DNA of 63,546 nucleotides, counting the filler, from Neolecta irregularis DAH-3 (Eukaryota), in the NCBI GenBank assembly GCA_001929475.1. It is 10 parts of 10 records of this genome, joined end to end, with 100 filler letters (N's around TTAATTAATTAA, not from the genome) between each part and the next. Parts side by side here need not be neighbours in the genome. Positions count along the whole stretch, not along the records: positions 38,691 to 43,837 come from LXFE01000993.1; 9 more parts are not named here. One strand, written 5' to 3'. The notes beneath the pieces were generated by a model. It was not told the origin of the DNA, did no database searches, and saw only the letters and a list, made by a program, of their open reading frames with translations. Made by a program: the position numbers and the translations under genes. This document shows positions 42,580-43,582 of the stretch, piece after piece. Position 1 is the stretch's first letter. Every line of letters begins with the position of its first letter.

Positions 42580-43582
42580 TTAATATGAAAACTTTTCCTT
42601 GATCTTTGAAAGAACTGATTCTCGGGGCTTTTCCGCAAATATAGCTGAAAGGCTTTGCCAGACCAGTTCAGGTTTCTGAGAAGCGTCGATGGGCGCCCAG
42701 ATTCCGTGTTTCTTGTAATAATTGACCACCGGGGCTGTTTGTTTATGATACGTTGCTGAGAGGTTAGAAATTCCGCGAGCAGATGTACATAGTCTGGTGG
42801 AAAGTGCAGCTGCATTATCGTCAGATCGCTGGATCAAAGGCTCCCCAGTGATATCATCCTTCATTGCAACTTTTGGTGGACTAGGATTAATCAGCGTAAA
42901 TTTATGAATTACTTGAATTCGCGATGGTAGCTTCGGCCGCTGTCAGGATGGATGAGTCGGCCTGTAACTCGACTGACAAGCAACGAATCGTCAATCTGCA
43001 ATTCAACAGCGTGGTTTAGCTTTTCTTTTCGAACGGCAAGCATCTCATCTAGTCTCTCGGCCTGCGGAACAGTTCGTGGAAACCCATCTAAAATAAATCA
43101 AAGATTATCAGATCACCCCTCATTTCCCACATACCCATTTTCACACTCCTTGTTCGATGTCAATTCGCTCTTGATCATGTTGACCATAATATCATCACCA
43201 ACTAGGCCACCGGCATCCATGATCTTCTTGGCTTCTATACCCAGTGCAGTTTTTCGTGCGACCTGAGATCGCAACATGTCACCAGTAGCCTAGCTATCAG
43301 ACTCGGAGCGCGCAGTGAATACGAGATGACAGATGCAAAACTTTTCCTTGATTTTCGGCGCCTGAGTGCCTTTTCCTGCTGATTAACAGTATATACAGCG
43401 ACAACTATACCCGCTCCAGGCGGCCCAATTAAAATCATTCTCAACTCCTTTGGAATCGACTTGGTTTTGTGCAACTGCAAGTTTTGCTCGTTTTGCTCAT
43501 TGAGCCGTTCAAGAACATCAATACGGTTCTGCATTGAAGCAACTAGGGTTTTAAGTTGGTCGATATCATCTGCGCGGGCCAT
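42580..43582 (-). CDS. ADK1: Adenylate kinase (Adk1/AK2 type), 6 exons
   Basis: [47 protein letters not shown] and [11 protein letters not shown]. Confidence 0.95.

Follow-up and report, generated by a model that had tools for sequence, protein, structure and literature searches.

The third intron of an Adk1-type adenylate kinase gene (ADK) in Neolecta irregularis, an early-diverging ascomycete, is very probably a genuine U2-type GT-TG intron at an ancient fungal position, with an acceptor that is likely a former AG and is still ligated. As GT-TG introns have been recorded in animals and at least one fungus (that is, human and Ganoderma), the intron is not a new kind of thing; it adds a well-supported case to the class, and what is unusual here is that TG is the sole productive site, that the position is ancient and that the gene is a housekeeping gene. 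The window analysed (63,546 nucleotides, fillers included) consists of ten contigs joined by nine 100-nt linkers (N44, TTAATTAATTAA, N44; the first at 8260-8359), and genes on either side of a linker need not be genomic neighbours.

Structure of the gene and of its third intron

The ADK gene lies on the minus strand of a 5147-nt contig (38691-43837) and, once a 36-nt GT..TG intron and four GT..AG introns (35, 33, 32 and 33 nt) are excised, reads as one open frame (Table 1) in which the P-loop, the NMP-binding region with the conserved GF[IV]LDGFPR motif and the LID domain are all present. Adenylate kinases in the PDB match the exons (E 1e-20 to 1e-23), a Pfam scan of 112 separate open frames placed ADK (PF00406) and ADK_lid (PF05191) on consecutive exon parts, and a public protein of N. 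irregularis DAH-3 named adenylate kinase gave a 100% identical match; judged by this domain content, the gene is an adenylate kinase of the long (Adk1/AK2) type. Exon 3 corresponds to residues 34-84 of yeast Adk1 (1aky_A) and exon 4, from FIL onwards, to residues 86-146, with the split codon GG/A supplying residue 85, such that residues 34-146 are covered gap-free by the ADK exons and no residue is missing or extra at the joint between exons 3 and 4. Upstream of this joint, an AG is skipped 4 nt past the branch A in intron 1, and another 3 nt past the branch A in intron 2. At the edge of the contig, just upstream of ADK, a 5S rRNA gene represented by its 3' part (43771-43837, minus strand; model positions 54-120, 38.9 bits) is cut off by the contig end, and this end at 43837 is probably a break in a dispersed 5S repeat.

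Table 1. Features of the ADK locus, and the GC..AG intron found elsewhere in the window (positions along the window)
Feature	Positions	Strand	Basis or remark
Adenylate kinase (Adk1/AK2-type) coding region	42580..43582	-	Spliced translation, ATG 43582 to TAA 42582-42580
ADK exons 1 to 6	43582-43411, 43375-43323, 43289-43135, 43098-42913, 42880-42789, 42755-42580	-	
Intron 1, 35 nt GT..AG	43376..43410	-	Restores the P-loop GPPGAGKGT; outside the X2 contig
Intron 2, 33 nt GT..AG	43290..43322	-	Protein continuity CHL/ATGDML against 1aky; outside the X2 contig
Intron 3, 36 nt GT..TG	43099..43134	-	Sequence, skip in the X2 contig, contiguity with 1aky
Branch-site-like motif CTGAT	43107..43111	-	Branch A at 43108
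Second branch-like motif TTGAT	43097..43101	-	Straddles the TG junction
Next AG	43088..43089	-	11 nt downstream of the TG
Intron 4, 32 nt GT..AG	42881..42912	-	Skipped in the X2 contig
Intron 5, 33 nt GT..AG	42756..42788	-	Skipped in the X2 contig
GC..AG intron, 37 nt, donor GCATGT	20429-20465	+	Dynamin/Vps1-like gene, alignment with 5wp9_A

Intron 3 opens with the donor GTATGT and closes with TTG/A (-3 being a pyrimidine, -1 a G, and -2 a U where A is usual), and its branch A precedes the final intron base (43099) by 9 nt and the G of the next AG (43088) by 20 nt. By its donor and branch site (GTATGT and CTGAT), the intron is classed as U2-type and not U12-type, and the donor, the CTGAT motif and the +9 spacing resemble those of the other short introns of the window. 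The minus strand from 43134 to 43099 reads as the original prediction had it (36 nt, from GTATGT to TTTG), and the consequences that it drew for two other ways of processing the transcript hold as well: pairing the same donor with the AG at 43089-43088 makes the intron 47 nt long and shifts the reading frame, which then meets a stop after 14 codons, and retention keeps the frame and reads two in-frame TGA codons within the 36 nt. Its claim that the conserved motif is rebuilt only if the intron ends in TG is true, but it overlooked an in-frame alternative in which an upstream donor at 43144 is joined to the AG at 43088, yielding a 57-nt GT..AG intron (43144..43088) that deletes the motif. No RNA structure by which the downstream AG could be masked stands out (z-score 0.15).

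Transcript and genomic evidence at the junction

Two public sequencing runs, X1 and X2, cover the locus, the kind of both being recorded as a guess ('DNA?'). Run X2 holds a 1255-nt contig that lies on the exons with 0 mismatches and skips 42756-42788, 42881-42912 and 43099-43134. Since two of these three skips are ordinary GT..AG introns, removed exactly, we infer that the contig is cDNA-derived. The skip of intron 3 has 155 nt on its shorter side and ends in CA..AC on the plus strand; the joint has 1 base common to both sides, so GG..TT is the only other placement. This exact removal of the 36 nt in a cDNA-like contig bears out the original prediction that the non-AG acceptor is real and used, and the TG junction is the one carried by the sole contig across the site. 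Assembled contigs lose rare variants and give no ranking of isoforms, and the data represent a single individual; the TG form is presumably the main isoform, beside which the 47-nt or 57-nt AG forms may also be used.

The same contig starts at 43289, the first base of exon 3, a break at the border of exons 2 and 3 that may reflect mixed splicing of intron 2, and at its other end it extends about 626 nt past the 3' end of ADK into the convergent RPL19 (41840-42439, plus strand), so its depth is uninformative on ADK expression. The pseudogene condition that had been named as a refutation of the original prediction does not hold, as splicing at the observed junction leaves an unbroken frame and a spliced contig is on record; the data support ADK being an intact, expressed housekeeping gene.

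Spliced RNA is identical whether the intron ends in AG or in TG, and the window is a draft of short contigs joined by linkers, such that the T at 43100 could be imagined to be an assembly or base-calling error in an ordinary intron that in the genome really ends in AG. We consider such an error, which had been raised together with the original prediction, most improbable: run X1 re-assembles into a 3609-nt contig that is identical to the window across the whole ADK gene and has the same TG, with a mean word depth of 411 and no other letter at the site or variant elsewhere in the gene, and the genome was sequenced to 199-fold coverage according to the available text of the genome paper (PMC5309816). 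X1 holds all sampled words and is possibly the source data of the assembly itself; the re-assembly thus guards against assembler error and not against systematic read error.

Retention without any splicing (that is, translation of the 36 nt with TGA read as an amino acid) would be compatible with the preserved frame and with both stops within being TGA, yet it is close to inconceivable, as the cDNA-like X2 contig is without the 36 nt, the insertion would split a motif contiguous in all homologues, and the stretch carries a full donor, a branch motif and a typical intron length.

At the corresponding place, the 270-aa protein in the public record (P0012) has the sequence KEY-GFPR, which is the product of the 57-nt GT..AG intron (43088-43144, minus strand); seven residues of the conserved GF[IV]LDGFPR region are missing from it, and it has Y for C. 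For this model to be right, the skip in X2 would have to be an artefact such as reverse-transcriptase template switching or mis-assembly. The 57-nt intron is canonical, in frame and used by the deposited annotation, but we regard this combination as highly unlikely: the residues that it removes belong to a motif that is invariant in five other aligned fungal proteins (P0014, a relative at 89% identity, plus four further fungal adenylate kinases, all with the full motif) and is contiguous in solved structures. Template switching would need more than the 1 nt shared at the X2 joint, this joint falls on the intron position of 50 of 58 other fungal loci (see below), and the same contig removes two canonical introns exactly. 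The loss of the seven residues is explained by the annotation having been forced to GT..AG, and the observed X2 transcript contradicts the P0012 model, which is wrong at the intron 3 junction. The public N. irregularis adenylate kinase model thus needs correction, and protein sets of other species with tiny introns may hide similar errors.

Conservation, branch-point spacing and the proposed mechanism

A scan of metagenome contigs with P0014 as the query returned 74 fungal loci, 72 of which contain the motif F[IVL]LDG[FY]PR; these reduce to 59 distinct 54-nt contexts, one of them at a locus edge. A phase-2 intron at the same position (that is, in the Gly codon before the motif) and with an AG end is present in 50 of the remaining 58 contexts and absent in 8, and none of the 58 has a non-AG end at this position. 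No ADK locus of a close Neolecta relative appeared in the scan (none above 80% identity, best segment). Judging from this distribution, the intron position is ancient and widespread in fungi. As all 50 intron-bearing loci end in AG, the Neolecta TG is most likely an ancestral AG that was mutated by a single A-to-T change and is still used. The intron is a clean natural case of TG as the only productive acceptor.

The spacing between branch point and acceptor was compared across 34 short introns of the window, of which 29 are unverified predictions from our own dynamic-programming chaining and 5 are those of ADK; the program required a branch motif 4-16 nt from the AG, and it erred in GAPDH and ADK. 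In this mostly predicted set, introns are 27-45 nt long and a distance of 5-11 nt (mode 7) separates the branch A from the final intron base, and the match in length and spacing that had been claimed for intron 3 (36 nt, +9) is confirmed against these ranges. An AG at +3 or +4 is skipped in 5 of the 34. A TG at +5, +5 and +6, respectively, is skipped in three predicted introns in which an AG follows within the spacing range; as TG is passed over where an AG is within reach, it appears to be a fallback and not the equal of AG. In ADK intron 3, the TG at +9 falls inside the 5-11 range and the next AG, at +20, falls outside it. These figures, which are correlative and come mostly from predicted introns, fit a 3' splice site that is set by its distance from the branch point.

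We propose that the A at -2 of the ancestral acceptor changed to T and that the spliceosome would still ligate the old site. The TG would be usable because its 9-nt distance to the branch A falls in the 5-11 nt range, with the next AG as far away as +20, and its use would be helped by the strong donor (GTATGT) and the strong branch site (CTGAT). More generally, an AG within the range would always win, and where there is none, ligation could take place at a suitably spaced YUG, given a strong branch site and a strong donor. In the account given in the available text of a recent study of budding yeast (RNA 2026, PMC12707134), three contacts are made at the 3' splice site: between the last and the first G of the intron, between the -2 A and the branch A, and between the -3 pyrimidine and Prp8 Q1594. 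The TTG site retains two of them, its -3 pyrimidine and its -1 G (with the second-step pairing to the first G of the intron) being preserved, and only the contact of the -2 A with the branch A would be lost. The same text describes Prp8, Prp22 and Prp18 mutants that use non-YAG 3' splice sites, a tolerance of the second-step active site for a change at -2 with G-1 and Y-3 kept that resembles what we propose for Neolecta; in yeast, however, the tolerance comes from a mutated spliceosome and was measured with reporters, whereas here it concerns a wild fungus and an essential-type gene. Together with the narrow spacing between branch site and acceptor, this makes ADK intron 3 a concrete and testable example of second-step site choice.

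TG is the commonest and best-documented non-AG acceptor, and in the text available to us of a human survey (Szafranski et al. 2007, Genome Biol 8:R154, PMC2374985), TG acceptors occur in 36 genes, in each of them as an alternative to an AG at most 28 nt away and in none as the only acceptor. The Neolecta intron resembles these human TG-AG tandems in being U2-type, in its GT donor and TG acceptor, in the pyrimidine at -3 and the purine at +1, and in having an AG nearby, at 11 nt as against the human limit of 28. It differs in its length of 36 nt and its branch site 9 nt away, and above all in that the human TG competes with a productive AG, whereas in Neolecta a working protein results from the TG alone, the AG alternatives leading to a frameshift or to deletion of the motif. 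These likenesses to the tandems described in PMC2374985 lend some plausibility to an arrangement in which the downstream AG defines the intron in the first step (in a U2AF-like manner) and the TG is chosen in the second, both sites being used and the AG product being degraded, with the effect of throttling ADK expression. The second branch-like motif points the same way: with its A on the opening base of exon 4 (43098) and the downstream AG 10 nt further on, it would make the unproductive 47-nt GT..AG intron look as well formed as the TG one. We nevertheless consider this arrangement possible but unlikely, as the sole contig across the site has the TG junction, the 3' sites in use, at 5-11 nt from the branch A, leave no room for a pyrimidine tract and the reading of an AG, and in budding yeast the AG is dispensable for the first splicing step.

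Within the preferred reading (a former AG that is still ligated as TG), the downstream AG may help the first step even if it is not the site joined in the second. The human TG, as described in PMC2374985, needs a nearby AG, and if the two are alike, splicing in Neolecta would be AG-assisted and not AG-independent. A stronger proposal is that Neolecta measures with a short ruler of 5-11 nt from the branch A and needs an AG at neither step when none lies within that range. We find this doubtful, as both the second TTGAT before the downstream AG and the human dependence on AG count against a pure ruler. If it were true, the ADK intron would be the first exposed member of a group of non-AG introns hidden behind gene models forced to GT..AG, and the species would be a natural system for second-step site choice, possibly through changes in Prp8, Prp18, Slu7 or U2AF.

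Among fungi, GT-TG introns number 22 (0.024%) in the table of a manually revised annotation of Ganoderma lingzhi, whose authors report that automatic annotation had missed non-canonical sites and mis-modelled genes (BMC Biol 2024, PMC11590231). These are rare, transcript-backed fungal GT-TG introns like the present one, but they were catalogued in a basidiomycete whose introns are of ordinary size, and in the text of that paper available to us we found no analysis of position conservation, branch distance or single genes. For Neolecta itself, fruiting-body DNA and RNA were sequenced for the genome paper, in whose main text, in the form available, 'intron' and 'splic' are absent (PMC5309816); among the matches listed in a literature search for Neolecta irregularis and intron, no title or opening of an abstract pointed to a paper on the ADK intron.

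Other introns and features of the window

A motif-only intron search was too noisy, its 211 and 240 candidates comparing with 92 and 79 when the sequence was reversed, and AG-only chaining gave 55 candidates, most of those above 50 nt looking false; in ADK it called the 57-nt AG intron, and its GAPDH calls were wrong, the five GAPDH introns (38, 51, 40, 36 and 39 nt) all being GT..AG when read by hand. Chaining with any acceptor allowed, a low-power method, proposed 8 non-AG candidates in the 63.5-kb window, none of which stood up, and it thus found no second non-AG acceptor there. Those in an ABC transporter gene (9447), the ISWI-like gene (49556) and GAPDH (54024) are in fact GT..AG introns of 40, 38 and 40 nt, respectively, and one in ADK (43322) is off by one base from GT..AG.

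The candidate at 1179, in a serine carboxypeptidase gene, is a 36-nt GT..AG intron (1179-1214, plus strand) in which the branch A of the sole CTRAY-type motif is a mere 3 nt away from the 3' end, such that either an extremely short spacing is possible or a non-consensus branch site is used. The candidate at 20415, in the dynamin/Vps1-like gene, resolves into a 37-nt GC..AG intron, whose flanking exons correspond to residues 221-290 and 292-444 of 5wp9_A with one residue (M) between them, and whose sole plausible branch motif near the end is CTCAT and not CTRAY. GC-AG is the common non-canonical intron class, with a donor read by U1/U6 base pairing; it is like the ADK intron in being non-canonical and in tending to escape automatic models, and differs in that the deviation is at the donor and not at the acceptor.

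The candidate at 27361 lies within a continuous open frame that is HDAC-like (27250-27400, minus strand) and reads DLHAADG where class I histone deacetylases have HHGDG; the frame may belong to a catalytically altered paralogue. The last candidate (45698) lies upstream of the start codon of a RACK1/Asc1-like WD40 gene. A long intron of this gene contains a box C/D snoRNA like SNORD24/U24 (44919-44996, minus strand; 32.2 bits, below the gathering score of 41, E 8e-4), and the ASC1 intron of budding yeast hosts snR24. The region 45001-48000 has a GC content of 0.553 (about 0.42 elsewhere) and long overlapping open frames on both strands, and it lies upstream of, and runs into, the SNF2 domain of the ISWI-like gene. 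Two tRNA genes (2362-2452, plus strand, 91 nt; 3373-3455, minus strand, 83 nt) match the whole 71-position model, and both probably contain an intron.
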